Below, piece after piece: positions 9,901-26,213 of a stretch of 64,000 nt of DNA. Numbering within the stretch: the stretch's first letter is position 1; the number at the start of each line of letters is the position of its first letter. Made by a program: the position numbers and the translations under genes. The notes below the pieces were generated by a model that did not search any database, was not told where the DNA came from, and was given only the letters and a program-made list of their open reading frames with translations. The DNA comes from Candidatus Magasanikiibacteriota bacterium (lineage in GTDB: Bacteria > Patescibacteriota > Patescibacteriia > Magasanikbacterales > GWA2-37-8): assembly GCA_963802255.1 (NCBI GenBank), contig CAWDHY010000001.1:363842-427841 (forward strand), given 5' to 3'.

Positions 9901-11706
9901 GGAGAAAAAATTAAGAAGATAGTTGATAAAATAATTTCTGAAACTGAAAAGAAATTAAAGGGCAAGGAATCCGGTTTGATTTTGGATACTGATATGAAAG
10001 AGGCAAAAAAGAGTGCGGCGTATGTGCGCGCCCAGCTTGATGCCGGAGCATTTATTGATGATGATGTATTGAAAAATCGTGCTGAAAATTTTGTTTCCAG
10101 GATAAACAGATTGTCTCTGGAAAGCATGGAAGAACCGTATTTTGATATTGAAGATTTACTTAAAGATGTTTCCGAACGTTCCCGCCGGCTGGAAAAAGAA
10201 ACAAAGAAAAATATTGAACGGGTGGCAAAACTTTCTAAAGACAAAAAAGCTCTGATATTTATGGCGGCCGGCGCTGTTATCGGCGGCGGTCTTGGTTATC
10301 TCGGATCGCAATTGTCGCAATATCTGCGTGCGCCAGCACCAAAAACAATAACACCGGCCGAACATGATATCGGCGTAACTGGCGGATCCAGATCAGTGGT
10401 GATGCCGTTAGAAAAAACTGCACCACCGGAAACTCCTTTATACCCAATTCCTCCGGAAACTCCGCTCAAGCCAATTCATGAAGGAGTGGGATTGAGTGCT
10501 CATAAGGCGGATATTGATAAAGCCCTGGAAACAGCTACAAGAAAAATTACCGAGCACGGTCCGGCCGTGCCCGCTGTCAGCACGTTAAGCGGTAAACCGA
10601 TGGAAGTTTCAGAATTGTATTCTGCCAGTATCAAAGATATTGAACATCCTCAGCCGGTGTTTTTAACCAGAGAGGAAAATATTGAACTTCAGCGACTCAC
10701 AAGCGGTAAAGCGGAAGGATCAGCGATTTTTGATTTTATTGAACGCGCTCATGAACGCGGTCAAATTTATGAAGACGCTAATGGAAATCAATATCATGCT
10801 GACGAACTTGACTTCACACCGGAAAAAAATATTACAAATCCGTATGATGCTGAGGGTCCGAAAGTCGGAAAGGGTGGCGTAGCTGAAGATTTGACTGAAA
10901 AAGTTAAAACAGCACCAAAGCAAAAAATTAAGAATCCTTATGCGGATGAGGAATTGTTGAAAAAGATTAAACCGACAAAGGCCGGGTCTTCCGCCAAATT
11001 GGATTCGTATGAAGACGTTTACGGAAAAAGTAAAATTATTCCAAAAGTACGGAATTTGGATTCAGTTGATGATGTGTACGGCAAAGACATACCGGCAGGA
11101 ATGACTCCGGAAGAAATAAAGGCAATCGGCGCGAGTGGAGATGAAAATATTTTGAAAGGTCCGGCTGAAGGGGTTGGGGCTCACGAACCGGCTGAGATTG
11201 AACAGATTCGTTTTAAAGGAGCGGATAAAGATATCAAAACACCGATTCCGGAAGAAAGACCGGTGGAAGATTTTACCGGAAGAGGGTCGGCTCATTCAGG
11301 TGAATCACTATCTCAGGATACTGCGCCAGCAAAATCTTCCGGTCCTTCGCCTGACGATCTGGAGCGGGAAAGAATCTTGAAAGAAATTGAAGAAAGAAGA
11401 CAAGCGGAAGCGGTTGAAGAACAGGATGACTTAGAAGTTGAAGAAGAAGCGGCACGAAATCCTGAGGTTACAAAAATTATTGCGCAAAGAGAGCAATCAA
11501 TGGCTTCTCAGCTCGCATCGCCAAAAGCAAGGTCGGCGTATAATTGGCTGGCAGAGCAAGCGGACAATAAAAATTTAAGTGAGGCCGATAGTACGGCGGT
11601 AAAAGGGCTGAAAGATGATTTTGTAAAGGATATGGTTGGCGATCGTAAGATCGAGCCTACATTACTTAGAAAAATAACGGCATTGCAGAAGAAAATTGGT
11701 CAATAA
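6976..11706 (+). CDS. Giant (1576 aa) K/E-rich coiled-coil protein with three glycine-zipper hydrophobic hairpins
   Basis: Uninterrupted 4.7-kb ORF, low-complexity charged alpha-helical sequence. Three segments (AGIGVGAAMIIGSGGAAAAVAGVSIVAA; GGIGAAVFGGGMAYAVAE...GAIAGAGLGLMI; LIFMAAGAVIGGGLGYLGSQL) look like membrane hairpins. Confidence 0.6.
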   Translation: MAQKNIGENERKGRDFSASAINGESDAQSLIDEIETNDREVDQKIAEMKAAGKFSSEIGDIGKKYHINGDDVYDAFEEACVNKNEDGSFTVADVDNLSKKLAEYHRSLQTFTDAYHGKKSGDNEADPEREKIGRKKEADTLKENEILRGIESELTTGQIRLKYCENTYRQIIESGMEIVLDEDMSERLNQFAKSMDYMQKTLDALVKIKDEIKNKFNSSDEISGGEVEEIYERLDKLGDNLKYLESWGVSISKRIEAKSKEQLDMLDKLVKLESQLQERKNKGKFRDEKTATLNDSLIEKINKLRAGVVRGAKLNGSEVAGLEDLAKKQILSPEEKGDVYAERMELYYKIRPRLQKENAEIEEMSDQLIWIGNRDKTAPPKMRELFSKAGKKIGDAIGLNNLLSRAVSLETNPPVDEIKEQLKEYEDTLPEARKLYNKLMPEIKLMKINSLRPKLMWAEGDIEKKKLNVEQRAMLEGWKSILKSGDVSLEELDVIADSLEEKIISPLKVAGEKESAAVRDKLVTAMRGREAEKKFEREGEEMNKAREKKFEPPKKKLKEQAGIKEESFGLDELGEAAPTKAEKTVLRKGVKEMMAESGVIEIDPQQIMDLLSDQEMKMLVFNVRKDAIERSDSNYNNFYQVLRDALNENIFKELKKEERDTMLKEVSSQTYIILRDAVKAETESQLLKAKSGEASRLAKAGKIGAKLLANVAMAAGIGVGAAMIIGSGGAAAAVAGVSIVAAREMNKRIAKSDVFQRAKARAGSLWERMTGGLFKKDKNQVDDDQVLKEVSEQIATKEKLAVILSNQIRENSSRDIIEQINFFAEQKQEAVKHPSPETSAKFENALDGVSKEFYKKALNYVSIEYGDKNLSDEELSRMAMTLTLTIGQNQRGDVAAASALSELEKKTKSPEERNWFLDKAEKFFKIRSGGIGAAVFGGGMAYAVAETSSIGRIVSGAIAGAGLGLMIEKKMRVGEGEKIKKIVDKIISETEKKLKGKESGLILDTDMKEAKKSAAYVRAQLDAGAFIDDDVLKNRAENFVSRINRLSLESMEEPYFDIEDLLKDVSERSRRLEKETKKNIERVAKLSKDKKALIFMAAGAVIGGGLGYLGSQLSQYLRAPAPKTITPAEHDIGVTGGSRSVVMPLEKTAPPETPLYPIPPETPLKPIHEGVGLSAHKADIDKALETATRKITEHGPAVPAVSTLSGKPMEVSELYSASIKDIEHPQPVFLTREENIELQRLTSGKAEGSAIFDFIERAHERGQIYEDANGNQYHADELDFTPEKNITNPYDAEGPKVGKGGVAEDLTEKVKTAPKQKIKNPYADEELLKKIKPTKAGSSAKLDSYEDVYGKSKIIPKVRNLDSVDDVYGKDIPAGMTPEEIKAIGASGDENILKGPAEGVGAHEPAEIEQIRFKGADKDIKTPIPEERPVEDFTGRGSAHSGESLSQDTAPAKSSGPSPDDLERERILKEIEERRQAEAVEEQDDLEVEEEAARNPEVTKIIAQREQSMASQLASPKARSAYNWLAEQADNKNLSEADSTAVKGLKDDFVKDMVGDRKIEPTLLRKITALQKKIGQ

Positions 11707-11893: not shown

Positions 11894-13648
11894 ATGGCAG
11901 AGGATAAGAAGACGAAAGCTCTCACTTCACGCGGGAAAACCGTGGATGGAGAGTCGTCCGGAACGAAGCCGACGGGCACTTTGATCAGTGAAGCCGAAGC
12001 TCAGGCGGTAAGGGGCAATACGATGCCGCCGCCGAAGCCCGATCCCAGCCGGTTCCCCAGCACAATCGCGGAGATATCCGGTGAGGAGTCGGCCGATGAA
12101 GCGGACGTTGTCCGTGGAACGGAAGAACTGGAAGTCGGAGAGGGCGTTCGGCCGGTACGGCCGGACGAGACCATGCGAACGCGAGTTTCGGGAATGATCA
12201 AGGACGCACTCGGCAAGCCCGAGGAGCCCGAGCCCGTTCCCGCCAAGATCATCAACACGTCAGCCGCTAGTTCGGATACGTGGTCCAGCGTCGGCATCGA
12301 GGGCGATGAAGCGGCGGAAGAGAATCCGCTGGCGGATTTGCCCGCGCCAGAAATGGCCGAAGGCGAAGTGGTTCAGGATGAAAGTCCTGAAGTCGCTGAG
12401 CCGGAAGTGGTTTCGGCTGATGCGAGCGTGGATGCGGAGGAGGCCTCCCCGGAGGAAACGAACGGGACGCCTCACCAGGCGAGTCCTTACGTGGAGCTTC
12501 GGATGATCGAGGGCGGAATCGTTCTCGAGGGTCCTGCGGTGGAAGTGGGTGATGAGCTCATCATCGGCCGTGACAAGGGTTGCGGCATGGTGATCGAGTC
12601 GCGCTACATCTCCCGGCATCATGCGGTGATCACCAAGTCGAAGGATGGCGACAAGTTCGTCATCATCGATCTCGGGTCCAAGCAGAAAACGTTCGTCAAC
12701 GACTTCGTCGTGGAACGCGACAAGGAATTCGAAATCGCGCACGGAGATACCATCCGGTTTGGCCGGGCGGACTGCGGCGCCGAGCTCGTCTTTCACGATC
12801 CGATGGTTCAGAAAGCAGATGTGGTGGCGGATGCCACCGTCATGAACCCCGACACCGACAGCCAGCCGGCCGATTCCGTTTCTGCGGATGAGCCGGAGAA
12901 GGAGGAAGATGTGACGAAAGCGGAACAGCACGCTGAGACGCTCAGCATCGACACGGGCCCGCTCCAGGGTGCCGTCGACAGCGGAGGAAAGGATGGCGAG
13001 AAGCCCGACGCAGACGCGACGGTCGTACCGCCCGACTTGCCTCCGCCGCCCGCCGACATGAAGAAGGCAGATACCAAGGGCGACAAGAAGAAGCCCGCCG
13101 GCGCGAAGAGCGCCTCCGGTGGCGGAACGCCGCCGCGTCTCCCGCCCTCGACTCAGAACTACAGCAAGGTGCTCTCGTCGGTTTTCATCGTTCTCATGCT
13201 CATGGTGGTCTTCGTCTTCGGCGCTATCCTCGTCGTTCGCGAGGTGATACCGGGCATTACCGGTTTCTTCGCAGAAACGGCAACGGTCGTCCCCATAGCG
13301 CCGCCCGCACAGGTGGCGAAGACGTCGGCAACCCAGCTGGCCAGCACTCCGGTGCAGGGTGAGCTGGCCGACCAGGTGGTACTCGCGGTTCAGGTGCCGG
13401 AGTTTGCGGACCTCAGAAAGATCCAGCTACCCGATGCATATGTTCCGCCTGCCAAATCGCCGATCAAGGATTTCGCGAGAGGGGTAGTCCTCCCCAAGTC
13501 ATTTGAGGACTGCTTCCCCAAGAACGCCACACTCGAAGCGGCGGAAGTGGCCTGGTGTTGCTCCTTCTTGCATCCGAATGCGGGTGACCTGGATGAACTG
13601 ATCAGGATGTCCGACTGCATGATCAAGCTCGAGCAGATGCAATATTAA
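11894..13648 (+). CDS. FHA-domain membrane protein (N-terminal acidic/Pro-rich region, FHA domain, one TM, C-terminal Cys-containing extracytoplasmic tail)
   Basis: LIIGRDKGCGMVIESRYISRHHAVI...DLGSKQKTFVNDFVV...HGDTIRFG is a canonical FHA core (GR...SRxH...N.T.vN). TM segment VLSSVFIVLMLMVVFVFGAILVV. GC-rich codon usage (first gene of the island). Confidence 0.65.
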   Translation: MAEDKKTKALTSRGKTVDGESSGTKPTGTLISEAEAQAVRGNTMPPPKPDPSRFPSTIAEISGEESADEADVVRGTEELEVGEGVRPVRPDETMRTRVSGMIKDALGKPEEPEPVPAKIINTSAASSDTWSSVGIEGDEAAEENPLADLPAPEMAEGEVVQDESPEVAEPEVVSADASVDAEEASPEETNGTPHQASPYVELRMIEGGIVLEGPAVEVGDELIIGRDKGCGMVIESRYISRHHAVITKSKDGDKFVIIDLGSKQKTFVNDFVVERDKEFEIAHGDTIRFGRADCGAELVFHDPMVQKADVVADATVMNPDTDSQPADSVSADEPEKEEDVTKAEQHAETLSIDTGPLQGAVDSGGKDGEKPDADATVVPPDLPPPPADMKKADTKGDKKKPAGAKSASGGGTPPRLPPSTQNYSKVLSSVFIVLMLMVVFVFGAILVVREVIPGITGFFAETATVVPIAPPAQVAKTSATQLASTPVQGELADQVVLAVQVPEFADLRKIQLPDAYVPPAKSPIKDFARGVVLPKSFEDCFPKNATLEAAEVAWCCSFLHPNAGDLDELIRMSDCMIKLEQMQY

Positions 13649-13666
13649 TTTTTGCCTACCATTTCA

Positions 13667-13692
13667 GGGAAGCAACAGTCCTGTTGCTTCCC
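13667..13692 (+). other. Perfect 11-12-bp stem-loop GGGAAGCAACAG/CTGTTGCTTCCC directly after the FHA gene (no U-tract)
   Basis: Inverted repeat read directly; followed downstream by a second long inverted repeat ACGGGTGTT...AACACCCGT plus T8 ending at about 13854. Confidence 0.4.
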
Positions 13693-13914
13693 ATTCCCAT
13701 CGGATGCCTGTGTTAACGGACATCCCGAGGAATAATATTTTTTGCACTTTATCGCAATCACCTGGTTTTCACGGGTGTTGCAATAAAGTGCAACAAAACG
13801 CACCTTACAATATAACAAGCAAGGCAATTAGAAAAACACCCGTTTTTTTTCGAAGCAGAGGGTCCGTAACAAAACGCGCAGAGCGCGCGATAACGGAGAA
13901 AGGGAGAAATCAAG

Positions 13915-15384
13915 ATGAAGAGATTCTTCGTCAGTTTGTTCACGGCAGCGGCCATCATGTACTCGGTCGGCGTTTCCGCGCAGTCCGCGGTGGATGGTGA
14001 TTACGAGGTCCAAGATTGGATGACGGTGGATATCACCGAGTCCGATCCGGGCGCTCAGCAGAGCGCCACCAATCAGGCCGTATTCTTCGGTCTGCAGGAG
14101 GTGGCCGTTCATCTGAAGAGGCTCGAGAACAAGTGCACGTCACCCAATTCGGACGGCTGCACTGACGCGATCATCGCTGCCGAGAAAAAGGCCAGCGAGA
14201 TCGTGAAGACCCAGGGTCTCTCACCCAAACAGAAGCGCGCGGTCCGACGGATCGTCGATGAAGCCATCACGGCCGCGAACGTGGGCGACACCGAGGGTGT
14301 CAAGAAAATCCGCGAACAGCTCGCGGACCACGAACGGCGAATTGGCGATCTCGAGGGTGACGTTACGAAGCTCAAGAGCAAAGTGACAGCGATCGAGAGC
14401 GGTGGCACAGTGGTCATCTCTTCGGAAAGTGGTTCGTCGGTAGCGGATTCCATGGATACGCGGCGCAAGGCCGTAGTGGCGCAGTCCACGGCAGACGAGG
14501 CGTTGCGGGTGGCCAAAGAGGCCAAGACCGCAGCCGATGAAGCCAAGGCTGCCTCTGCCGGTGAAAATTCCGGTATTTCCAAGGAAGACTTCCAGATCGT
14601 CCGCGATGCCGCGGCTGACGCGCAAGCGCGAGCCGATCTGGCACAGCGTGCTGCCGAGGAAGCCAAGGAAGCGGCCGATAAGGCTCTCGCCGGTTCCGAC
14701 AACGCGAACGAGTCCGGTGATGCCGAGGCGCTCGCGGATGCCAACAGGCGTTCGGACGAGGCCCTGACACAGGCCAAGGAAGCTCTCGCCAAGGCGGAAG
14801 AGGCGCGCGAGAATTCCGATGGTCTTGCCGATCAGATCGCGGCGCTCAAGACCGACATCGGCGCTTTGGAAGCCAAGCTCGATAAGAAGCAGGATGCCAA
14901 CGAGGTGGAGGCCGGTCTCGGCTATTTCACCACCGGCAAGATTTTCGCCCCAACCGTAGGTGTTACCTACACCGTGCGGCGCGGAGATATCCGGCTGGCG
15001 ATTGGCGCTGACTTCGGCTACCACTTCTTCTACGACAACATCGAGTACGAGCCCGAGATCAGAATCCTGTTCAACAGCTACTTCCGGCTCGGATACCAGT
15101 TCGTGGATTGGTTCTCCGCAGGCATCGGCGCATTTTCCTACAGCGCCGGCCAGCCCTATTCCGACACTTTCGGTTTCGGAGCAGAGTTGAGCGCCCGGTT
15201 CAACTGGATGCTCACGGACGCTCTCGGAATGGCCGTGGAGCTCTGGGGAGGACCCACCTACGAGTGGCAGAAGGTCACTAATCCGGAACCGCCGGATGTC
15301 GGTGCCAATGAGATCTACAAAAGCACTGACCAAAAAGGCGGTGCTTCCGGCGCCGGAGGCCTCCGGTTGACCCTCACGTTCTAA
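13915..15384 (+). CDS. Secreted protein: signal peptide, Ala-rich coiled-coil stalk, C-terminal beta-rich domain ending in an OMP-like beta-signal (…GLRLTLTF)
   Basis: MKRFFVSLFTAAAIMYSVGVSAQS signal peptide. Heptad-like AKEAKTAADEAKAAS...AEEAKEAADKALAG region. The C-terminal 160 aa has alternating aromatic/hydrophobic beta-strand patterns and a terminal Phe. RBS GGAGAAAGGGAG upstream. Confidence 0.6.
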   Translation: MKRFFVSLFTAAAIMYSVGVSAQSAVDGDYEVQDWMTVDITESDPGAQQSATNQAVFFGLQEVAVHLKRLENKCTSPNSDGCTDAIIAAEKKASEIVKTQGLSPKQKRAVRRIVDEAITAANVGDTEGVKKIREQLADHERRIGDLEGDVTKLKSKVTAIESGGTVVISSESGSSVADSMDTRRKAVVAQSTADEALRVAKEAKTAADEAKAASAGENSGISKEDFQIVRDAAADAQARADLAQRAAEEAKEAADKALAGSDNANESGDAEALADANRRSDEALTQAKEALAKAEEARENSDGLADQIAALKTDIGALEAKLDKKQDANEVEAGLGYFTTGKIFAPTVGVTYTVRRGDIRLAIGADFGYHFFYDNIEYEPEIRILFNSYFRLGYQFVDWFSAGIGAFSYSAGQPYSDTFGFGAELSARFNWMLTDALGMAVELWGGPTYEWQKVTNPEPPDVGANEIYKSTDQKGGASGAGGLRLTLTF

Positions 15385-15410
15385 GTTCTTTCCTGCCTTT
15401 GTTTGTTCTT

Positions 15411-15438
15411 GGGGCGAATGCGTTCTGCATATCGCCCC
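15411..15438 (+). terminator. Hairpin GGGGCGAatgcgttctgcaTATCGCCCC after gene 13915-15384
   Basis: 8-bp GC stem 27 nt after the stop; only a weak T-run follows. Confidence 0.35.
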
Positions 15439-15628
15439 CTCTATTTTGCCAATTATTATTTGTTGGCAGAATAGGGGATACACTTTGGCCCTTTCGCATT
15501 TTTATGCGATAATACCAAAGAAAGAAATATAATCTGTTCATTACAACTGACTGATAGTAAATAAGACAGCCGATGATGGCTGTTTCAACACAGAAATTTC
15601 GGGCAAAGACCCGAGAAAGGAACATAAA

Positions 15629-17272
<1,644 letters not shown>

Positions 17273-17310
17273 TCTTATCAGTTAGTTAAGTTCTTTCCGT
17301 TTGTTCTTTT

Positions 17311-17341
17311 GCGGCCGCGTGTTCTCACGCGGCCGCTTTTT
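17311..17341 (+). terminator. Rho-independent terminator GCGGCCGCGtgttctcaCGCGGCCGC + TTTTT
   Basis: 9-bp GC stem then U-tract, 38 nt after the stop of gene 15629-17272. Confidence 0.6.
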
Positions 17342-17365
17342 ATTTTATTTTAAAAATTTTTTTAA

Positions 17366-17397
17366 TAAAAAAACACCGAGCCAGATTGGCTCGGTGT
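17366..17397 (-). terminator. Rho-independent terminator for the minus-strand gene (CACCGAGCC-aatct-GGCTCGGTG + U7 on the minus strand)
   Basis: Plus strand shows aaaaaaaCACCGAGCCagattGGCTCGGTG, 22 nt downstream of the 17420 stop. Confidence 0.55.
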
Positions 17398-17419
17398 GGG
17401 ATGTGCGGAAGAGCAAGGG

Positions 17420-18079
17420 TTAAAGAGCGGAGAGAGCGGCGGGGGGAAGTGGACGGTAGAGGCTGTACATCCGGAGGAGGCATTCGTTCCGATACGGAAC
17501 AGGCAGTGCCTCGCAGCAGGGTTGCACGTTCTCTCGGCACAACACCGGACCGCCGGAAAAGCAGATGTCGGAAGGGTTCGGCGTGATGGCCGGAGGAGCT
17601 GTGAGCGTCGGCGGCTCCTTGTCCGTCACGTCTTCTCCGCGGTTGGCCACGGAGTAGGCGATCCAGCCGGCCAGCAGCAGGAGGATGATGATGACGATGA
17701 TCCATCCGATGGGGATGTCCCTCACCGGGCGGTGCGGCGGCGTCTGCTCGGCCTGCTCACGGAGTCGGGCGTTCAGCGCCGCTTCCTCGGCGACACGTCG
17801 CGCTTCGGCCTCTTCGCGGAGGCGAGCGTTCTGAGCCGATTCTTCTGCTGCGCGTCGCGTGCGTTCGACTTCCTCGGCCGCCAAGCGCGCTTTCTCGCGC
17901 TCGACGCTTTCGTCCACCATCTTGATGCCTTTGTCCACGACCTTCATCGCGGCCGCGAACATCTTCGCGCCGTAGTCATCCACGCTTTTCGCCGTCTTGG
18001 CACCCGGCTTCTGCTGATCGCCAGTCTTGCCATGGCCTCCGCCTTGCTGAGAGCCGTTCTGATTATTGTCGTTTGCCAT
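17420..18079 (-). CDS. Membrane protein: Gly/Gln-rich N-terminus, AEEA/ARLRE-repeat coiled coil, one TM, short Cys-rich C-terminal tail
   Basis: Start MANDNNQ at 18079 with GGAG 7 nt upstream; TM IGWIIVIIILLLLAGWIAY; C-terminal ...DICFSGGPVLCRENVQPCCEALPVPYRNECLL. The annotated ORF-track start at 18163 is probably too long. Confidence 0.55.
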   Translation of the reverse strand: MANDNNQNGSQQGGGHGKTGDQQKPGAKTAKSVDDYGAKMFAAAMKVVDKGIKMVDESVEREKARLAAEEVERTRRAAEESAQNARLREEAEARRVAEEAALNARLREQAEQTPPHRPVRDIPIGWIIVIIILLLLAGWIAYSVANRGEDVTDKEPPTLTAPPAITPNPSDICFSGGPVLCRENVQPCCEALPVPYRNECLLRMYSLYRPLPPAALSAL

Positions 18080-18213
18080 TTGCAAATCTCCTTTTTTGGA
18101 ATGGCTTCTCGCCGGTTTTTTAGTTTGGTTGTCAATGGTGCTGCCAAAAAATGACAGTATCAATAAATAATCAAATTAAATATTTAAAATATATTGATCT
18201 AAATTAACTAATC

Positions 18214-18242
18214 ATCTTAGCACATTTATTGGAGTATGTCAA
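18214..18242 (-). promoter_or_regulatory. Candidate divergent promoter for gene 17420-18079 (minus strand TTGACA - 17 - TAAGAT, with aaatgtgc extended -10 context)
   Basis: Minus-strand reading gcccaTTGACAtactccaataaatgtgcTAAGAT; shares the aaatgtgc-TAnAnT context with the plus-strand promoters. Confidence 0.3.
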
Positions 18243-18271
18243 TGGGCTAATTGGCCATTTTGGTAGGGGGC

Positions 18272-18300
18272 TTGACAAAATCATACAAATGTGGTATACT
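18272..18300 (+). promoter_or_regulatory. Sigma70 promoter TTGACA - 17 nt - TATACT, extended -10 (TGg)
   Basis: cTTGACAaaatcatacaaatgtggTATACT; perfect -35, 17-nt spacer, 5/6 -10. Confidence 0.55.
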
Positions 18301-18306
18301 ATCCCT

Positions 18307-18430
18307 TGTAAGTGAAAAATATAAGTTTTTGGCCTGCGTTTGAGAGAGGCGCCTGTCAAAAACAACCTAAATATGCCTAATTATATCAAGGCATAATACC
18401 CGAAAACTCTCTCAAAAGGAGAGGTTTTTT
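18307..18430 (+). ncRNA. Candidate short transcript or leader from promoter 18272, ending at an intrinsic terminator (CUCUC-aaaag-GAGAG + U6) just before the second promoter
   Basis: tGAGAGAGg (18341-18349) can pair with CTCTCTCA (18407-18414); the same CUCUC can instead pair with GGAGAGG (18418-18424) followed by TTTTTT (18425-18430). Internal ATGCCT/AGGCAT hairpin. No ORF. Confidence 0.3.
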
Positions 18431-18476
18431 CTTTAAAATAAGGCAAAATTGTTCAATAGTTGAGTCTTTAATGGTG

Positions 18477-18505
18477 TTGACAAAATTGCTTAAATGTGCT
18501 ATACT
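18477..18505 (+). promoter_or_regulatory. Sigma70 promoter TTGACA - 17 nt - TATACT, extended -10 (TGc)
   Basis: gTTGACAaaattgcttaaatgtgcTATACT, about 170 nt upstream of the start at 18676. Confidence 0.55.
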
Positions 18506-18675
18506 TATACGTTAAGATAAATTTTCCTTTACTTTGCGCCTATCTTTCAAGAGCGGGTGCAGACTGAGGGAAATTTCCTTAGAAAAGCTCTTTTCATATA
18601 GAAAGAAGTTGAAAGAAACAGCGGCCGTGAGTCGGCCATAACAAGCCGCACTGCGGCGCAATATTGGAGGATCCG

Positions 18676-19714
18676 ATGAAAAACGTCATCGTGACCGTGT
18701 TCGTAGTGCACTGCGCCATGTTCGTTTCGGCGAACGCCCTCGCGCAGTACAATGGCGCTAGCCCCGCCGGCCCGCTCATCGTGGACAACTTGTCCGCCAT
18801 GCAGGCGGCCGGCCGGTGCGTCTCGCAGATCCAGACGGTCTGCAACGGCTACTGGAACGCCCCCGGGTGTTCGCAGGCCGTGATCGACTGCGACAAGGTA
18901 CGCTCCGGTGCCAAGAAGGCGGCCACCGGCCTGACCAAGAAGCAGGTCATCGCCATCGTTGAAGACGCAATCAAGGGTCTCGCCAGCAAGGCGGATCTCG
19001 ATGCTCTCGCGAAGCGTGTGGCCGCGCTCGAGGATGGTCTGGCCAAGGAAGCTGCGGCACGCGCCGCTGCCGATGAGGCACTCCAGGCGGATATCGACGA
19101 GCATAAGGCCGCGGAGTGTCACGACGGCGAACGGCGCTGCACGGACGAAAATACGCCGGCGGTTTGTACGGACGGTAAGTACGTCGACCAGCCAGACTGC
19201 GGCGAGGACACCTTCTGCAACGACGGGCTTTGTATGGAAGAAGCCTTGGGACGAGGACATCAACGCCCTGAAGGATGAAGTCATGTTCGAGATCGGCGCT
19301 ACGTTCTTCGGCGCTCCTCACCTTCAGGCGATCGGTGCCGCGGCTGGTTTGCAGCTGCGGATTGCCGACAACATCGCGGTGGTGGGAGACCTCGGGCTCG
19401 GCTACGCCTTCGACAAGGATGTGGCCGTGATCGCGAGTGGTGGTGTTGTCTTCTACGTGACCGAGAAGTTCGGTCTCGGACCCGTCGCACTCTTCGGCAA
19501 GGAGAGTTTTGATGACGAAGGTGACGTCGAAGTTGGTGGAGGTGTGGAGCTTCGGTTCCGTACCGGCACCGGTTTCTTCGTCTCTGGAACCATCGGCCTC
19601 GGCGCTGAGGGAGTGCTTCAGAAGATCGGCACGCGTCCTGACGGCGAGAAGCTGACCGACCGCGAGTGGGGCCTGGCCGTCATGGGCGGGCTCATGATCG
19701 GCGGCGAGTTCTAA
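18676..19714 (+). CDS. Paralog of 13915-15384 (signal peptide, Cys/coiled-coil region, C-terminal beta-rich domain ending ...GGLMIGGEF), interrupted by a +1 frameshift near 19233-19247
   Basis: GGAGG RBS + ATG at 18676, signal peptide MKNVIVTVFVVHCAMFVSANALAQ. Frame 1 runs to 19278 (…FCNDGLCMEEALGRGHQRPEG*). The overlapping +1 frame (ORF 18959-19714) continues …WDEDINALKDEVMFEIGATFFG…, homologous to the C-terminal domain of 13915-15384. Either a pseudogene or a sequence error. Confidence 0.5.
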
Positions 19715-19948
19715 CCAACCAGTTCTTTCCTTTCTATATAAGGTCGGCGCGATTCTGCGCCGGCCTCCCAACTCTTGCGTACAAAATTTGTTCGCAGAAG
19801 TTGGGACCAAAGTTCTCATATAAAAATTGGGAACGACGGAGCACCCATTAAAATAGCTCTTTGAAATATTATTAGGAACTTAAAAGTTTAGAAACGCAAC
19901 GAACGAAACACATCCCGACACGTCGGGATTGACAAAAAGGAGATACCG

Positions 19949-21415
19949 ATGAAGACCATCGCTATGATTCTCTGGGTTGCTCTGGTCGTGATCGCGGCGA
20001 GCGCGTGTGGTGTGGAGGCGGGCGACGGTGACTTCACCGCGACCGCGGACACCGACAGCGACACCGACTCCGACACGGATTCGGACAGCGATTCGGACAC
20101 CGACAGCGACACCGACTCCGACACGGATTCGGACAGCGATTCGGACACCGACAGCGACACCGACTCCGACACGGACGAGTGTACGGATGGCGAGGTCGGG
20201 TGCACCGACGACGACTCCTTCCACATCTGCGTGGATGGTCAGTGGTCGGCGGAACTCGATTGCGCCGGCGACCTCGTCTGCGAAGACGGTGAGTGTGTCG
20301 ATCCGGGTTCGGACTGCGAGGACGGCGAGAGTGAGTGCACCGACGACGATTCGTACCACGTGTGCGTCGGCGGCAGCTGGTCGGCAACGATTGACTGTGC
20401 CGATGGCTACGAGTGTGCGGAAGGTCAGTGCGAGCTCGTTCAGATCTGCGATCCCGGTGACGAGCGCTGCTACGGCGGAAACGCCCAGCAGTGCAACAGC
20501 GCCGGAACGGCTTGGGCCACCATCGATTTCTGCGCCTCCGATGAGGAGTGCGTGGTGGTGGGTGGCGAGGCTGAGTGCGTCGCGGACACGATTTGCACCC
20601 CCTACGACGAGCGCTGCTACGGCGGAAACGCCCAGCAGTGCAACAGCGCCGGAACGGCTTGGGCTGTCATCGACTACTGCGCCTCCGATGAGGACTGCGT
20701 GGTGGTGAGCGGTGAGGCCGAGTGCGTGTCCGATTCTATCTGCACCCCCTACGACGAGCGCTGCTACGGCGGAAACGCCCAGCAGTGCAACAGCGCCGGA
20801 ACAGCTTGGGTCACCATCGACACCTGCGGCTCCGACGAGGAGTGCGAGATGGTGGGTGACGAAGCCGAGTGTCACGAGTGCGGCGCATTCAACAGCTATG
20901 ACTGTCCCAGCGGGGAAACCTGCGAAGAGGGACAGTGCGTAGGCGGCGATGACGACGAGTGCATCGTCGGCGACCCGGCACATCAGTGCGACGAAGGGTA
21001 CGCCTGTGTGGATGGCGAGTGTGTGGAGGCCGACTGCACGGGCGCGACTGATTGTCCGACAGGGCAGGTCTGCCACATCCTCGGAACGCGCTTCGAGACC
21101 GTGGGTAGCGAGATCTACGGGTACAAGATCGACGGCGTTTGCGCTTCGGCCCCGTCCGGTACCGCCGAGTGTTGGGACAGGGACTGGGACGGCAGCGCCC
21201 TGACGATCGGCGGAGTGTGTGAGCTGTTCTACAGCGAGTACTCCCCGGACGTCTGGTACTCCTACCAGAGCACCCCGCACTGCCAGGGTTCGTCCTGGCA
21301 CAACCCGATCCCAGAATGCTGTATCCGGGACAGTATGGACAAGTGCGTCAAGCATACGGTTTCCACCGGCTTGGGCACGATCATGTCCAGCTCCTGGATC
21401 GCCCGCGTTATCTAG
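19949..21415 (+). CDS. Lipoprotein, (S/T)D-repeat Cys-rich family member 2 (488 aa)
   Basis: Signal/lipobox VVIAASACG; SD/TD tract; three near-identical about 40-aa Cys modules (CxPYDERCYGGNAQQCNSAGTAWAxIDxCASDEECVVVxGEAECV); C-terminal ECWDRDWDGSALTIGGVC...IPECC domain shared with family. Confidence 0.65.
   Translation: MKTIAMILWVALVVIAASACGVEAGDGDFTATADTDSDTDSDTDSDSDSDTDSDTDSDTDSDSDSDTDSDTDSDTDECTDGEVGCTDDDSFHICVDGQWSAELDCAGDLVCEDGECVDPGSDCEDGESECTDDDSYHVCVGGSWSATIDCADGYECAEGQCELVQICDPGDERCYGGNAQQCNSAGTAWATIDFCASDEECVVVGGEAECVADTICTPYDERCYGGNAQQCNSAGTAWAVIDYCASDEDCVVVSGEAECVSDSICTPYDERCYGGNAQQCNSAGTAWVTIDTCGSDEECEMVGDEAECHECGAFNSYDCPSGETCEEGQCVGGDDDECIVGDPAHQCDEGYACVDGECVEADCTGATDCPTGQVCHILGTRFETVGSEIYGYKIDGVCASAPSGTAECWDRDWDGSALTIGGVCELFYSEYSPDVWYSYQSTPHCQGSSWHNPIPECCIRDSMDKCVKHTVSTGLGTIMSSSWIARVI
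20048..20170 (+). repeat. 48-nt tandem repeat about 2.5 copies (SD/TD dipeptide tract)
   Basis: gacaccgacagcgacaccgactccgacacggattcggacagcgattcg repeated. Confidence 0.75.
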
Positions 21416-21646
21416 TAGTTCCTACCTTGTTCTTTCAGGTCGACGGCGCCTTTAAAGCCGTCAATTCATATGAGATGATCTGTCTCTCGGATAATCTCAG
21501 ATGAATCAAAGAATCCGGGCCTTGTGCCGGGATTTTTTGTTTTTGATGATTACATGGTTTTGCTGTCACAAACACACCTCTTTATGCGTAATATCTAATG
21601 TAATATCAGTGGTTTTTGACATTTTTGTGGATAATCATATAAACAC

Positions 21647-21675
21647 TTGACAACAGAGCCAAAAAGTGTTAATAT
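21647..21675 (+). promoter_or_regulatory. Sigma70 promoter TTGACA - 17 nt - TAATAT, extended -10 (TGt)
   Basis: cTTGACAacagagccaaaaagtgtTAATAT about 300 nt upstream of gene 21973. Confidence 0.5.
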
Positions 21676-21716
21676 TTAGTGTTACAATTTATGTGTATTT
21701 CAAGCTGATTAGCAAT

Positions 21717-21775
21717 TGAGAGAGGTGGCTAATTTTGGCGAAATACAGCGCAAAACCTCTCTCGGCGAGGTTTTT
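21717..21775 (+). promoter_or_regulatory. Conserved leader element: GAGAGAGG ... CCUCUCUC hairpin followed by a short GC stem and U-run (attenuator-like)
   Basis: tGAGAGAGG (21717-21725) is perfectly complementary to CCTCTCTC (21756-21763), followed by ggcgaggTTTTTgttaTTTTT; same GA/CU motif pair as in leader 18341-18424. Confidence 0.35.
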
Positions 21776-21972
21776 GTTATTTTTATTGGCGTCAATATTT
21801 TCATGCTAAATTTTTTGGCTTGAAACAGGGACGCTTCCCCTGGCCGTACTCGCTTATGCGTAATTCGGCTTGAAGCTAAATATAATAGTACCTTGAAAAT
21901 TGAAGGGAACAAAAATAAACAATCGCGATTGGAATCGCGACAAACAGAATCGAAGGAAAAGAGGAGGAAAAG

Positions 21973-24723
21973 ATGAGAAAGTATTTGGTCTGGTTTGCGA
22001 TCGTCCTGTCTGCGACCGGATGTATCTCGCCGAACATGGGGGGAAACGGAGACGAGTACAAGTTCGGCAGTGACACGGACACGGACACGGACACCGACAC
22101 GGACACCGACACGGACACCGACACGGACACCGACACGGACACCGACACGGACACCGACACGGACACCGACACGGACACCGACACGGACACCGACACGGAC
22201 ACCGACACGGACACCGACACGGACACCGACACGGACACCGACACGGACACCGACACGGACACCGACACGGACACCGACACGGACACCGACACGGACACCG
22301 ACACGGACACCGACACGGACACCGACACTGGTGACGGTGGCCCGGATGGTGGAGACACTGATTCGGGCGTTGACTGCATCAGCGGGCCGTGTTGCAACGC
22401 GGGCGGATTCTTCCAACCCGAAGGATACCCTTGCGCTTCGTTCGCCGAGTATCAATGCAATGGGACTCTTTGCGGAGCCGACGCTCAGTCGCGCTCAGTG
22501 ACGCAGTTCTGCTCGGGCGAAAGTTTCGAGTGCGACGGCGATACGTTCGAGACGGTCTGGGCGACAATCCAGAACTGTTCAGACTCCGACGTCTGCAACA
22601 CCGATATGGTTTCTTATGCCGAGTGCGCCGAGTGCGACCTTGGTTGTGAAGATGTCGGTGGAATCGGCGACTGTCTTTTGGAGTGCGATCCTGCCGACGA
22701 ATGCTGCGGATCCGATGGTCTCTTCGAGATCGTGGGCACCCTTTGTGGTGATTCATCCGACAGCGTGTGCGACGGAGCGGATACTTGCGACGGCGCCGGT
22801 GTGTGCCTCGAGAATATCGAGCCAGACACGACTGAATGCCACGCATCTGCCGGAGATTGCGACATCACGGAATTCTGTGATGGCGCTGGCGCTTGTCCTA
22901 CCGATACGTTCGAAGCGGCGCTTATTGAGTGCCGTCCTTCCGCTGGTGTTTGCGATATCGCTGAGTACTGTACCGGCGATTCGCCGGCTTGTCCTTCCGA
23001 TGAGGTGGAGTTCACGAGTTTGCCCTGCGACAGCTGGGCAGAATATCAGTGCTTCGCCGGAACCGGAGATGGATGCGGAGCTGACGCTCAAGCGCGTTGG
23101 GCTACGCAGTACTGTGGCGGTGGGGTTTCGTGCGATGGCAGTATCTTCAGTACCGCCTGGATGACTATCCAGAATTGCGGTGATGATGATATTTGTTTCA
23201 CCGATACCTTCTCCTACGCCGAGTGTGAGGTCTGTGATGTCGGCTGTACGGATGGTGAATGTGATGATCTGCCTGACGGCGGCGCTGACACCGACACCGA
23301 CACCGACACGGATACGGATACGGACACGGACACGGATACCGACACGGATACCGACACGGATACGGATACCGACACGGATACCGACACGGATACCGATACC
23401 GACACCGATACGGATACCGATACGGACACGGACACGGATACGGATACCGATACCGACACGGATACCGACACGGATACCGATACGGACACGGATACCGACA
23501 CGGATACCGATACGGATACCGATACGGATACCGATACGGATACCGATACCGATACCGATACGGATACCGATACTGGGGACTGCGTCCCTGGCGATATGTG
23601 CTGTGATCTCGCCGGCAATTTCGAGCCGGCCGGTACGTCCTGCGGTGACACCACTGCTTCGACCTGCGACAACCCCGACACCTGTGATGGTGGCGGCAAC
23701 TGCGAGTCGAACTACGAGCCGACTACCACTGTTTGCCGCCCGGCGGCAGACATCTGCGACGTGGATGATTTCTGCAATGGTGCAGGACTCTGCGATCCGG
23801 ACGAGGTGGAGCTCGAGTTCGTGGAGTGCCGAGGTTCTCTCGGTGCTTGCGACGCGGTGGATTACTGCGATGGTATCACCACATCGTGTGATGACGGACT
23901 GCTCTTCGGCGATGTCTGCCACGCTTCGGCCGGCGACTGTGATCCCGAGGAGACCTGCGACGGTGCGTTGCCGGATTGTCCGGTCGACACGCTCGAGCCA
24001 GACACCACGGTATGCCGTGCGGAAACCGGTGACTGCGACAACGCCGAGACCTGTACCGGTAGCTCTGCTACCTGTCCGGCCGACACGTTCAAGTCGCCGT
24101 CTACCATCTGCGATACCTCCTACGAGTTCAGATGCAATGGCTCGCTCTGCGGGTCCGATGCTCAGCGCAGACTGGTTCGCCAGTACTGTGACGGCACCGG
24201 TGCCGCCTGTGACGGGTCCATCTACTACAACAGCTGGTTGACGATCGAAAACTGCGACGCTTCCTCTGTTTGCATCGCGACTCCCATTTCTGCTACCTGC
24301 GACGTTTGCGGTTACGAGTGTCAGAACATTCCTGACGGTACCTGCGTCGGCGAAGAGGACGAACCCTGTGCTGAGCCTCCTTTCGAGGAGTGCGATGACG
24401 GGCTCGTCTGCACCGAAGGTATCTGCGGTACCGAACCCGATGGCGGGACGGACGGCGGAATCGACGGCGGCGCTGACACCGACACCGGATACCGATACGG
24501 ACACCGACACGGATACGGATACGGATACCGACACGGATACGGACACCGACACGGACACCGACACGGACACCGATACCGACACGGACACGGACACCGACAC
24601 GGATACCGACACGGATACGGATACCGATACGGATACCGATACGGACACCGATACGGATACCGATACGGATACCGATACGGATACCGATACGGATACCGAT
24701 ACTGGGGACTGCGTCCCTGGTGA
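21973..24723 (+). CDS. Lipoprotein family member 3, segment A of a 4.2-kb gene (real frame ends at a +1 frameshift about 24487; the ORF tail to 24723 is an out-of-frame read of the repeat as GYRYGHRHG...)
   Basis: Lipobox LSATGC followed by [16 protein letters not shown] (same post-Cys motif as 15629). About 42 consecutive TD dipeptides, Cys-rich modules (CRxxxGxCDxxExCxGxxxxCPxD), second TD tract, first copy of the 909-bp block. Confidence 0.6.
22093..22326 (+). repeat. Perfect 12-nt tandem repeat (gacaccgacacg) x about 19.5, encoding (TD)n
   Basis: Exact head-to-tail copies over about 234 nt, read directly from the sequence. Confidence 0.9.
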
Positions 24724-25609
24724 TACGTGCTGTGATCTCGCCGGCAATTTCGAGCCGGCCGGTACGTCCTGCGGTGACACCACTGTTTCGACCTGCGACA
24801 ACCCCGACACCTGTGATGGTGGCGGCAACTGCGAGTCGAACTACGAGCCGACTACCACTGTTTGCCGCCCGGCGGCAGACATCTGCGACGTGGATGATTT
24901 CTGCAATGGTGCAGGACTCTGCGATCCGGACGAGGTGGAGCTCGAGTTCGTGGAGTGCCGAGGTTCTCTCGGTGCTTGCGACGCGGTGGATTACTGCGAT
25001 GGTATCACCACATCGTGTGATGACGGACTGCTCTTCGGCGATGTCTGCCACGCTTCGGCCGGCGACTGTGATCCCGAGGAGACCTGCGACGGTGCGTTGC
25101 CGGATTGTCCGGTCGACACGCTCGAGCCAGACACCACGGTATGCCGTGCGGAAACCGGTGACTGCGACAACGCCGAGACCTGTACCGGTAGCTCTGCTAC
25201 CTGTCCGGCCGACACGTTCAAGTCGCCGTCTACCATCTGCGATACCTCCTACGAGTTCAGATGCAATGGCTCGCTCTGCGGGTCCGATGCTCAGCGCAGA
25301 CTGGTTCGCCAGTACTGTGACGGCACCGGTGCCGCCTGTGACGGGTCCATCTACTACAACAGCTGGTTGACGATCGAAAACTGCGACGCTTCCTCTGTTT
25401 GCATCGCGACTCCCATTTCTGCTACCTGCGACGTTTGCGGTTACGAGTGTCAGAACATTCCTGACGGTACCTGCGTCGGCGAAGAGGACGAACCCTGTGC
25501 TGAGCCTCCTTTCGAGGAGTGCGATGACGGGCTCGTCTGCACCGAAGGTATCTGCGGTACCGAACCCGATGGCGGGACGGACGGCGGAATCGACGGCGGC
25601 GCTGACACC
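23572..25609 (+). repeat. Tandem direct duplication: two 909-bp near-identical copies (23572-24480 and 24701-25609) separated by a 220-bp TD-repeat tract (period 1129 bp)
   Basis: Copies align base for base from actggggactgcgtccctgg... to ...cgacggcggcgctgacacc. Only a few substitutions are visible (ggcgatatg vs ggtgatacg; actgcttcg vs actgtttcg). The antisense ORFs 23862-24107 and 24991-25236 are identical. Confidence 0.85.
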
Positions 25610-25765
25610 GATACGGATACCGATACGGATACGCGACACGGACACGGATACCGACACGGATACGGACACCGACACGGATACCGACACGGATACCGACACG
25701 GATACGGATACCGATACGGATACCGACACGGATACGGATACCGAACTCTGGGAGTGTGTGTCTGA
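24368..25765 (+). CDS. Segment B of the same gene (real coding about 24487-25634 in this frame; second copy of the Cys-rich block). The ORF-track N-terminus MLSLLS... is an out-of-frame artefact.
   Basis: The frame carries PDTDTDTD... then [25 protein letters not shown]... identical to segment A residues, then [11 protein letters not shown] followed by an RHGHGY out-of-frame repeat read after a second +1 shift near 25634. Confidence 0.5.
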   Translation: MLSLLSRSAMTGSSAPKVSAVPNPMAGRTAESTAALTPTPDTDTDTDTDTDTDTDTDTDTDTDTDTDTDTDTDTDTDTDTDTDTDTDTDTDTDTDTDTDTDTDTDTDTDTDTGDCVPGDTCCDLAGNFEPAGTSCGDTTVSTCDNPDTCDGGGNCESNYEPTTTVCRPAADICDVDDFCNGAGLCDPDEVELEFVECRGSLGACDAVDYCDGITTSCDDGLLFGDVCHASAGDCDPEETCDGALPDCPVDTLEPDTTVCRAETGDCDNAETCTGSSATCPADTFKSPSTICDTSYEFRCNGSLCGSDAQRRLVRQYCDGTGAACDGSIYYNSWLTIENCDASSVCIATPISATCDVCGYECQNIPDGTCVGEEDEPCAEPPFEECDDGLVCTEGICGTEPDGGTDGGIDGGADTDTDTDTDTRHGHGYRHGYGHRHGYRHGYRHGYGYRYGYRHGYGYRTLGVCV

Positions 25766-26213
25766 CACTGACTGCACTGATCCGGCTTTGCCCATCTGCT
25801 CACAGTTCCACATCTGCGTGGAGTGTGAGTACGGCGAAGACTGTTTCGTCGATGAAGGGTGTGGCAAGGAATCGTTCACCTGCGAACCCATTCCGAAGCC
25901 CGCAGTGGGTGAGTATCTGTTCTGTTGGGACCTCGATCCCGACGGCGACCCCCTCACTATCAACAGTACTTGTGATGACTTCGACGTCGTTGATGGCTGT
26001 GACTACTGGGGGCCGGTGCCCTGGCAGTACGAGGAAGGCGTAGGTATGCCGATTTGTGGCAGCTGCGATTGGGTCGTCGATCACTGTGAGGCGTGTGCCG
26101 AACAGGAACCCATTCCGGAGTGTTGCCTCAGCAATCAGTGGAACTTCTTTGAGCTGGATCCTGTGGAGCGGATTTGTCTGACGCAGGGACTGCTCATTGA
26201 ATTCATTCCATAG
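25497..26213 (+). CDS. Segment C of the same gene (real coding about 25634-26213: TD tract plus conserved C-terminal domain FCWDLDPDGDPLTINSTC...IPECC)
   Basis: Frame carries (TD)n then ELWECVSDTDCTD... and the family C-terminal domain; stop at 26211-26213. Confidence 0.55.
   Translation: MLSLLSRSAMTGSSAPKVSAVPNPMAGRTAESTAALTPIRIPIRIRDTDTDTDTDTDTDTDTDTDTDTDTDTDTDTDTDTDTELWECVSDTDCTDPALPICSQFHICVECEYGEDCFVDEGCGKESFTCEPIPKPAVGEYLFCWDLDPDGDPLTINSTCDDFDVVDGCDYWGPVPWQYEEGVGMPICGSCDWVVDHCEACAEQEPIPECCLSNQWNFFELDPVERICLTQGLLIEFIP

Follow-up and report, generated by a model that had tools for sequence, protein, structure and literature searches.

Two protein families with a predicted stalked beta-barrel in a Candidatus Magasanikiibacteriota genome

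Genes A and B

A 64-kb stretch of contig CAWDHY010000001.1 from a Candidatus Magasanikiibacteriota genome (assembly GCA_963802255.1; called the window below, it makes up about 10% of the 628-kb source contig, and its 37 genes were scanned) carries two genes on the forward strand, A (13915-15384) and B (18676-19714), both coding for secreted proteins with an N-terminal module, a helical part and a C-terminal domain that is predicted to form an eight-stranded beta-barrel. The initial annotation of the window had described them as paralogous secreted proteins, one of them frameshifted, with a coiled-coil stalk and an outer-membrane type beta-barrel; its observations on the two sequences were confirmed, while the interpretation was partly supported. 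The sequence features, the predicted fold, the family distribution (10 members in family A and seven lineages in family B) and the synteny given in this and the following sections were established directly. The host had been taken conditionally for a member of the candidate phyla radiation (CPR), which proved right, as homologues with syntenic loci were present in metagenome-assembled genomes (MAGs) of Candidatus Magasanikbacteria and the "Patescibacteria group".

Gene A is intact and encodes 489 amino acids, as judged from the open reading frame, its homologues and AlphaFold modeling; the terminus GGLRLTLTF and the aromatic-rich stretches FGYHFFYD, RLGYQFVDWF and GFGAELSARFNW were all found as originally quoted. 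The start is preceded by a ribosome-binding site (AAGGGAG) and followed by a type-I signal peptide (aa 1-22, 13915-13980) cut at ...VGVSA/Q, and a hydrophobic N-terminus closing in A-x-A/Q is conserved in every family member. Next come an N-terminal helical module (13981-14289) with two conserved cysteines, C74 and C82, and the motif GL(S/T)xKQ..VRR..DEAI, an Ala/Glu/Asp/Lys-rich helical region (14290-14892; Ala 22%, Glu 11%, Asp 10%, Lys 9%) with a Ser/Gly-rich linker at aa 146-178, and the C-terminal domain (aa 327-489, 14893-15381) with eight long strands and a terminal Phe. A local heptad test picked out three heptad-regular stretches in the helical region, each 28 aa or longer (126-163, 227-260 and 292-324), a result that none of 300 shuffles reached, while a global Fourier test of aa 179-326 gave no signal of a 3.5-residue Ala periodicity because of the breaks in heptad phase. 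The invariant Ala residues occupy heptad a/d positions and there are weak matches to alanine-zipper and trimerisation motifs (PF11839 with a best E-value of 0.003 in four of the 10 family members); the stalk of A is, therefore, helical and heptad-rich, and both a long oligomeric coiled coil and a fold-back bundle are possible. An Ala/Glu/Lys-rich coiled coil was originally assigned to both proteins; the heptad pattern holds for A, while the corresponding helix of B is only about 40 aa long and failed the heptad test.

Gene B starts at ATG 18676 just downstream of GGAGGA; its first reading frame extends to about 19242, and the +1 frame then covers 19244-19714. Its 5' part (18676-19242, frame 1) encodes a signal peptide (to 18744), a four-Cys N-terminal module, the short helix and a six-Cys insert, and the 3' part (frame 2) a linker and the barrel domain, beginning at about 19277 and ending with MGGLMIGGEF directly before the stop codon. 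In the AT-rich spacer upstream of B, two sigma-70-like promoter matches (18272-18505, forward strand; TTGACA-17-TATACT with TG, 11/12) were found as matches to the consensus.

The N-terminal 125 aa or so of the two proteins, including the signal peptide, the Cys helix and the motif GL(S/T)xKQ...(D/E)AI, proved homologous in a profile comparison (hhalign probability 91.7%, E 7.9e-7). In contrast, the C-terminal domains had no detectable similarity either as profiles (probability 0.3%) or in BLASTP, where nothing significant was found. The designation "paralogous" is, therefore, correct for the N-termini and not demonstrable for the barrels, so that A and B have an architecture and a predicted fold in common and only partly a demonstrable common ancestry.

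Predicted fold of the C-terminal domains

The C-terminal domains of A and B are predicted to be eight-stranded transmembrane-type beta-barrels, as had been proposed from the alternation of aromatic and hydrophobic residues. The AlphaFold models were made from shallow alignments of four to five sequences (five for A), with the intact homologue P0007 (337 aa) representing family B. In the A model, helices at positions 45-326 are followed by eight long strands and a short one over 328-488 with a predicted local distance difference test score (pLDDT) of 80-86 in the strands, while the P0007 model contains eight strands over 194-336 (strand pLDDT 70-80); averaged over whole models, the pLDDT was 56-64 and the predicted template modeling score (pTM) 0.35-0.40. 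The strands are 12-20 residues long, and their connections in A measure 2, 2 and 5 residues on the side of the termini and 3, 14, 6 and 23 residues on the opposite side. All of the top 50 Foldseek matches in the PDB, for A as well as for B, were outer-membrane or designed transmembrane barrels, including OmpW, OmpA, NspA, Ail, OmpX and OprF-N (target TM-scores 0.5-0.66; Ail, NspA, OmpX, OprF-N and designed barrels in case of the B model), and the best structural matches were eight-stranded. The same eight-strand topology was, hence, obtained with AlphaFold for two families without a sequence relation, and the number and length of strands and the hairpin pattern were kept among members with only 20-30% identity.

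The sequence properties of the domains agree with the models. One strand face is 83-85% apolar and 6-7% polar across each family, and the second consists by half of Gly/Ala/Ser/Thr with about 30% polar or charged residues. The mean beta hydrophobic moment of the last 160 or so residues was elevated both in A (z = 2.7, reached by 3 of 1000 shuffles) and in B (z = 2.4, 11 of 1000), the helical part of A giving z = -0.2. Among the window genes, only A and B end with Phe, and they also have the two highest beta-moment scores. Phe or Trp is the last residue in all 10 family A members, with the consensus G-L-x-L-x-F-x-F, while an aromatic terminus is present in five of the seven B lineages, L006 ending with ...SFL and L007 with ...KSGR; the classical beta-signal ascribed to both proteins is, thus, valid for A and is replaced in B by a weaker motif that is not conserved across the family. 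Sub-threshold matches to the outer-membrane barrel family PF13505 (OMP_b-brl) were found in three of the seven B members (best E 2.9e-4; 13.9 bits for B of the window at a cut-off of 28.7) and none in A. A soluble beta-sandwich had been named initially as the structure that would speak against the proposal; the models, the Foldseek matches, the strand composition and the terminal aromatic residue together argue, therefore, for a barrel.

The frameshift in gene B

Alignment of the DNA with the intact homologues L010/P0007 and L004/P0010 revealed a single extra base in B of the window, a G at 19243 in the context ATGGAAGAA-G-CCTTGGGAC. This lies inside the range originally given for a +1 frameshift (19233-19247), which is, thus, real in the assembled sequence. 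The intact proteins P0007 (79% identical) and P0010 read ...FCNDGLCM(A/E)(E/K)PW... through the break, the 3' part of B is 75-84% identical to its intact homologues, and in the other four syntenic genomes the gene is intact. Programmed +1 frameshifting was rejected: the homologous frame resumes at 19244, 33 nt before the stop codon of the 0 frame, and no slippery or stop context is present, which leaves a mutation or an assembly error. Gene B is, therefore, either inactivated in this genome by a one-base insertion or misassembled. An exact look-up of its truncated product, P0008, found no other record.

The six-Cys module inside B (40 aa, 19114-19233) has 31 of 40 positions in common with its counterpart in a distant homologue, P0010 (L004, about 2230-2350), which is only about 35% identical to B overall. 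P0007 and P0010 both carry the insert, and it is absent from the orthologues in L001, L003, L006 and L007, although L001 and L003 are closer orthologues of B than P0010. The module resembles those of the adjoining lipoproteins, and its distribution suggests an exchange of modules by recombination.

Family distribution and conserved gene order

The two families occur very rarely. Only four close relatives of A were found among 5.8 billion proteins, one of them in a MAG of Candidatus Magasanikbacteria. With the A barrel profile, six true clusters were recovered from 1.84 billion cluster representatives, all having the same architecture; the homologues share 46-72% identity, with four distant clusters in addition, and one of the clusters is annotated as "Patescibacteria group bacterium" while another is located on a 732-kb contig. 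In the representative genomes of GTDB, a profile search based on a five-member alignment retrieved only a Magasanikiibacteriota MAG from Lac Pavin, and for B no close relatives were found in two JGI metagenome scans, the first of which relied on signal-peptide patterns. Every taxonomically named member of the two families belongs to the CPR (Magasanikbacteria/Patescibacteria).

In five genomes, the order of genes is the same: an FHA-domain membrane protein, A, a lipoprotein, a small membrane protein on the minus strand, B and one or more lipoproteins, with SmpB (minus strand), two unassigned genes, a DUF5663 gene, a 65-aa gene and a protein of 1.5-1.65 thousand aa upstream and with Wzy_C, GT4 (a glycosyltransferase) and GHL15 genes downstream. 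Although the A proteins of these genomes share only 20-63% identity, their barrels are conserved, and the genes are intact. The barrel is also the best-conserved part of A in comparison with P0003 (83% identity), and this conservation, together with the kept gene order, indicates a retained function.

Neighboring membrane proteins and lipoproteins

A single-pass membrane protein with an FHA domain (11894-13648, forward strand; Pfam FHA, E 5e-18) is encoded directly upstream of A in all five genomes, and a small single-pass membrane protein (17420-18163, minus strand, probably starting at ATG 18079) is always located divergently upstream of B. Both have cytoplasmic N-termini and extracytoplasmic C-termini, and the latter carry a common motif, P-x4-DC-x12-13-CC-x9-12-C, in all five genomes (in the window at 13440-13645 and at 17420-17600 on the minus strand). 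The Cys motif common to the two membrane proteins and the N-terminal module common to A and B suggest that a unit of two genes, coding for a putative single-pass Cys-knob protein and for a stalked barrel protein, has been duplicated.

Three lipoprotein genes on the forward strand complete the locus. Lipoprotein 1 (15629-17272) has a lipobox, acidic (DT/DS)n repeats, Cys-rich modules and a conserved Cys-rich C-terminal domain; a search of NCBIfam gave matches driven by the repeats only. Lipoprotein 2 (19949-21415) belongs to the same family and includes six-Cys modules similar to the B insert; one homologue was found for its C-terminal domain, which is uninformative on the origin of the locus. 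The very long lipoprotein 3 (21973-26213), with disintegrin-like Cys modules (Pfam Disintegrin, E 1.9e-14), is read in three frames (21973-24723, 24368-25765 and 25497-26213), which change inside the (GAYACN)n tracts coding for (Asp-Thr)n. An internal duplication of about 1.1 kb was seen in this gene. Five stretches of its first open reading frame (21973-24723) match the Disintegrin model at the above E-value, in a bacterial lipoprotein, and the very long (DT)n tracts flanking them produced spurious matches to models of staphylococcal SD-repeat adhesins. Judging from their sequences, the lipoproteins may act as wall-spanning spacers that display adhesive modules.

Altogether, there are three frame disruptions in this region (one in B and two in lipoprotein 3) and none were seen in the other 50 kb of the window. 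Those in lipoprotein 3 could result from assembly errors in the repeats, phase variation or decay. The orthologous repeat lipoprotein in GCA_964407865.1 (L003, about 6900-7000) contains a run of N, i.e., a scaffold gap; the difficulty of assembling such repeats calls for caution with the frame disruptions in the window as well.

The GC-rich island and its flanks

The G+C content rises abruptly at 11.9-26.2 kb of the window, and the resulting island (11894-26213) contains all genes from the FHA protein to lipoprotein 3. In five genomes, the G+C content at third codon positions (GC3) of the island genes is 0.65-0.91, against 0.31-0.60 for the genes that flank them in each genome, and the equivalent islands (L001 7986-16900, L003 2598-15485, L006 7517-18380 and L007 7835-20419) have the same boundaries. 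Only the coding sequences are GC-rich; the spacers inside the island have an ordinary low G+C content of 0.34-0.44. An assembly chimera was rejected as the cause since two Logan assemblies, made independently, show the same junction, as do the four other genomes. No match to the A barrel was obtained in phage and plasmid records (tblastn) and neither A nor B in scans of viral contigs, and an origin from a mobile element was, therefore, dropped. An island limited to the coding sequences is explained neither by recent transfer nor by a mutation bias of the region.

Directly upstream of the island, a low-GC gene set (4498-11706 in the window) is kept in four of the five genomes, with equivalents in L001, L006 and L007; at the L003 locus only the end of the large upstream protein is visible. 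It encodes a 266-aa membrane protein, a 366-aa protein, the DUF5663 protein, the 65-aa protein and the large protein, which has multiple hydrophobic segments, and a Pfam search of the set found nothing beyond DUF5663. These genes may be part of the same envelope system. Further upstream, at 3547-3940 on the minus strand, there is a tmRNA gene whose predicted tag peptide, ANLFNNVKAAIAGAFSPSMSFATVAV, is unusually long; SmpB is encoded immediately upstream of the 266-aa gene in the related loci. O-antigen-ligase-like membrane proteins (Wzy_C) are encoded at 26417-27946 and 57907-59997, one of them fused to TPR repeats. With the glycosyltransferases and the GHL15 hydrolase, a surface-glycan machinery thus adjoins the island of an organism that is presumed to have no lipopolysaccharide. 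The remaining genes of the window code for ordinary CPR housekeeping and wall synthesis functions. No Omp85, POTRA, Lpt or Lol gene was found among the 37 genes scanned.

Comparison with known envelope proteins

The closest match to the predicted structure of A and B is found among the small eight-stranded outer-membrane barrels (the N-domain of OmpA, OmpX/Ail, OmpW/OprG, NspA, PagL and the Thermus protein TtoA; PF13505), with which the models share eight antiparallel amphipathic strands in a closed barrel, and the sequences an aromatic C-terminal beta-signal. They differ from these in the long N-terminal helical fusion, in not passing the threshold of any family and in being encoded in a CPR genome. 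Soluble eight-stranded barrels of the YceI and lipocalin type scored below the membrane barrels in the structural comparison, and such a protein would need more polar residues at its surface than A and B have. The Helicobacter Hop adhesins (BabA and SabA) have a disulfide-containing helical N-terminal region, a small C-terminal barrel and an aromatic end, a layout that may be comparable to that of A and B; in the Hop proteins the helical domain lies outside a diderm cell, and there is no sequence relation to A and B.

In the initial annotation, the layout was compared with the OmpM-like tethering proteins. The SlpA/OmpM proteins consist of an SLH domain, a triple coiled coil and a trimeric 16-stranded porin (PMC10628300, PMC10160955). 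Veillonella OmpM1 and the SlpA of Deinococcus and Thermus resemble A and B in the signal peptide, the N-terminal anchor, the stalk on the N-terminus of the barrel and the C-terminal position of the latter, and they come from the Terrabacteria side of the tree, which includes the CPR. The differences are the lack of an SLH domain, eight predicted strands instead of 16 (OmpM) or about 30 (SlpA), no sequence similarity and a host phylum regarded as monoderm. Membership in the OmpM group is, hence, not supported, and with this number of strands the barrel of A and B would not be a porin; the remark that no SLH domain was obvious was correct, as none was found at E <= 0.1 in the window proteins or at E <= 1 in 10 A and seven B members. 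The Omp-alpha/Omp-beta system of Thermotoga, another deep-branching lineage, likewise combines a helical rod with a barrel and links the wall to an outer protein-rich layer, but it uses two proteins, has an SLH domain in Omp-alpha and includes BamA, while in A and B the rod and the barrel are fused and SLH is absent.

Two further identities were considered and rejected. Trimeric autotransporters of the YadA type also have a stalk with many coiled-coil heptads followed by a C-terminal membrane barrel and act in surface adhesion. However, each of their chains contributes four strands to a shared 12-stranded barrel with the stalk passing through it, whereas the models of A and B show an own eight-stranded barrel per chain, and no Pfam match to the YadA anchor (PF03895) was found in the two families. 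Braun's lipoprotein Lpp, an alanine zipper, resembles A in the placement of Ala at heptad a/d positions and in the weak PF11839 matches mentioned above, but A and B are far larger, carry a barrel, have signal peptides ending in A-x-A without Cys at +1 and, thus, no lipobox, and show no sign of a C-terminal Lys link to peptidoglycan. We classify A and B as a new pair of CPR-restricted families, in which a novel N-terminal module and stalk are joined to what is predicted to be a small outer-membrane type barrel; no report of such barrels in the CPR was found in the literature.

Proposed function and alternative explanations

The membrane insertion of A and B, the membrane concerned, the docking partners and the function are inferred from the above data. 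A and B would be Sec-exported envelope proteins of a small clade within the CPR, bacteria of ultra-small size (Magasanikbacteria and relatives), the signal peptide being cleaved, with a helical and probably disulfide-bonded N-terminal module, a stalk that is long and heptad-rich in A and short in B, and a barrel of the OmpA/OmpX/OmpW type. The N-terminal module would stay at the CPR surface, most likely docked to the extracytoplasmic Cys motif of the adjoining single-pass protein, i.e., the FHA protein in case of A and the small minus-strand protein in case of B, while the barrel would embed in a lipid layer beyond the cytoplasmic membrane of the CPR cell. The membrane of a host is the favored target; it might be entered from the side bearing both barrel termini, and the beta-barrel assembly machinery (BAM) would then not be needed. 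The proteins could, thus, act as stalked anchors or tethers, possibly connected with Ser/Thr-phosphorylation signaling through the cytoplasmic FHA domain. A host membrane is favored because the literature describes Patescibacteria as epibionts with a monoderm envelope (PMC11665869, PMC12102498), a loss of the OmpM porin and SLH has been reported for the CPR/Chloroflexi clade (10.1101/2021.05.31.446380) and the island has an adhesive appearance. We tentatively prefer this explanation, stalked membrane anchors by which the CPR envelope is tethered to another lipid layer, probably that of the host, and give it slightly less than an even chance of being correct.

A number of observations weigh against it. 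The fold rests wholly on predictions from four- to five-sequence alignments; comparison of both barrel domains with PDB chains, as single sequences and as profiles, produced chance matches only, and there was no Pfam or NCBIfam match above threshold for A or B. The two strand faces did not differ in conservation, although a lipid-facing side is expected to be the more variable. We know of no precedent for the insertion of a barrel into the lipopolysaccharide outer leaflet from outside. The strictly conserved C-terminal aromatic residue is what a machinery of the BAM type would recognize and fits a host target less well than an outer layer of the bacterium itself. That the N-terminal module docks to the adjoining membrane proteins is suggested only by gene adjacency and parallel duplication, and, with B broken, at least this genome manages without it.

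The terminal Phe/Trp in all family A members is the strongest point for the idea that the clade has a second lipid or protein-lipid layer of its own, either an outer-membrane remnant or a toga-like sheath, to which A and B would serve as wall-to-membrane tethers in the manner of OmpM/SlpA or of Omp-alpha/Omp-beta in Thermotoga, assembled by a BAM-like system that recognizes the C-terminal aromatic residue. The order of N-terminal module, stalk and barrel, parallel to that in SlpA/OmpM (PMC10160955, PMC10628300), the register of short turns and long loops, which would have the stalk and the two chain ends face inward, and the surface-polysaccharide genes (Wzy_C, GT4) flanking the island also fit such a layer. 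Yet, a monoderm envelope is ascribed to Patescibacteria (PMC11665869, PMC12102498), the CPR have reportedly lost OmpM and SLH (10.1101/2021.05.31.446380), the A and B families lack SLH domains, no Omp85, POTRA, Lpt or Lol gene was found among the 37 window genes, which cover about 10% of the contig, and just two small barrels are seen, one of them broken here, so that we consider such a layer quite unlikely. A soluble secreted barrel of the YceI, lipocalin or avidin kind, binding a hydrophobic ligand such as lipids or isoprenoids scavenged from the host, appears unlikely to a lesser degree. The alternating hydrophobic pattern would equally suit a hydrophobic interior, the conservation test revealed no faster-evolving lipid-facing side and CPR bacteria must import lipids; half Gly/Ala/Ser/Thr with about 30% polar or charged residues would, however, make a poor solvent-exposed surface, and strands of 12-20 residues, the conserved C-terminal aromatic residue and the PF13505 matches in three B members also speak for a membrane barrel. 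A reduced metabolism of the CPR has been described (PMC11665869).

If the fold prediction were an artifact of shallow alignments on Gly-rich amphipathic strands, the domain might in reality be a beta-sandwich, a fibril-forming domain or an oligomeric pore. The small number of sequences, the low mean pLDDT and pTM of the whole models and the lack of sequence homology to known structures leave room for this; we regard it as improbable, given the same topology in two sequence-unrelated families with a strand pLDDT of 70-86 and the persistence of strand number, length and hairpin pattern at 20-30% identity. Lastly, the island might be decaying foreign DNA from a high-GC diderm, with A and B as leftover outer-membrane genes having no role in the CPR, for which the GC3 of its coding sequences, 0.67-0.81 against 0.33-0.41 in the flanks, and its three frame disruptions could be taken as signs. 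Against this, the same island occupies the same place in five genomes with A proteins at 20-63% identity, conserved barrels and intact genes, its spacers are host-like in G+C content and include promoter-like sites and ribosome-binding sites, and no relative outside the CPR was found among 1.84 billion representative proteins or in the phage, plasmid and viral collections, making this origin very improbable.

Returning to the preferred stalked anchors, a broader proposition would be that a monoderm, host-dependent CPR lineage makes outer-membrane type barrels without a classical outer membrane and carries them on stalks docked to FHA-linked membrane proteins, either driving them, as conduits or grappling anchors, into the outer membrane of a host cell, or holding with them a toga-like sheath that is the remnant or precursor of a second membrane. 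In this full form we consider it rather doubtful.

Significance

A transmembrane beta-barrel that ends in an aromatic signal is taken as a hallmark of bacteria with two membranes, and surveys relying on such markers count the CPR as monoderm. A conserved structural hallmark of the diderm envelope, predicted in a phylum treated as monoderm, is what makes the finding of interest, and it bears on the debate over how diderm and monoderm envelopes have changed into one another. The locus points to a compact and repeated two-gene envelope unit, composed of a Cys-knob single-pass protein and a stalked barrel protein, and the GC-rich island confined to coding sequences across diverged genomes is a puzzle of genome evolution in its own right. 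The clade-specific barrel pair offers an object for asking about host attachment, an outer layer in the CPR and the assembly of small barrels without BAM. If either the insertion into a host membrane or the toga-like sheath were true, a barrel of this class would for the first time be seen in functional use in a phylum that is believed to have lost its outer membrane or never to have had one, and this would require a BAM-independent or newly evolved barrel assembly.

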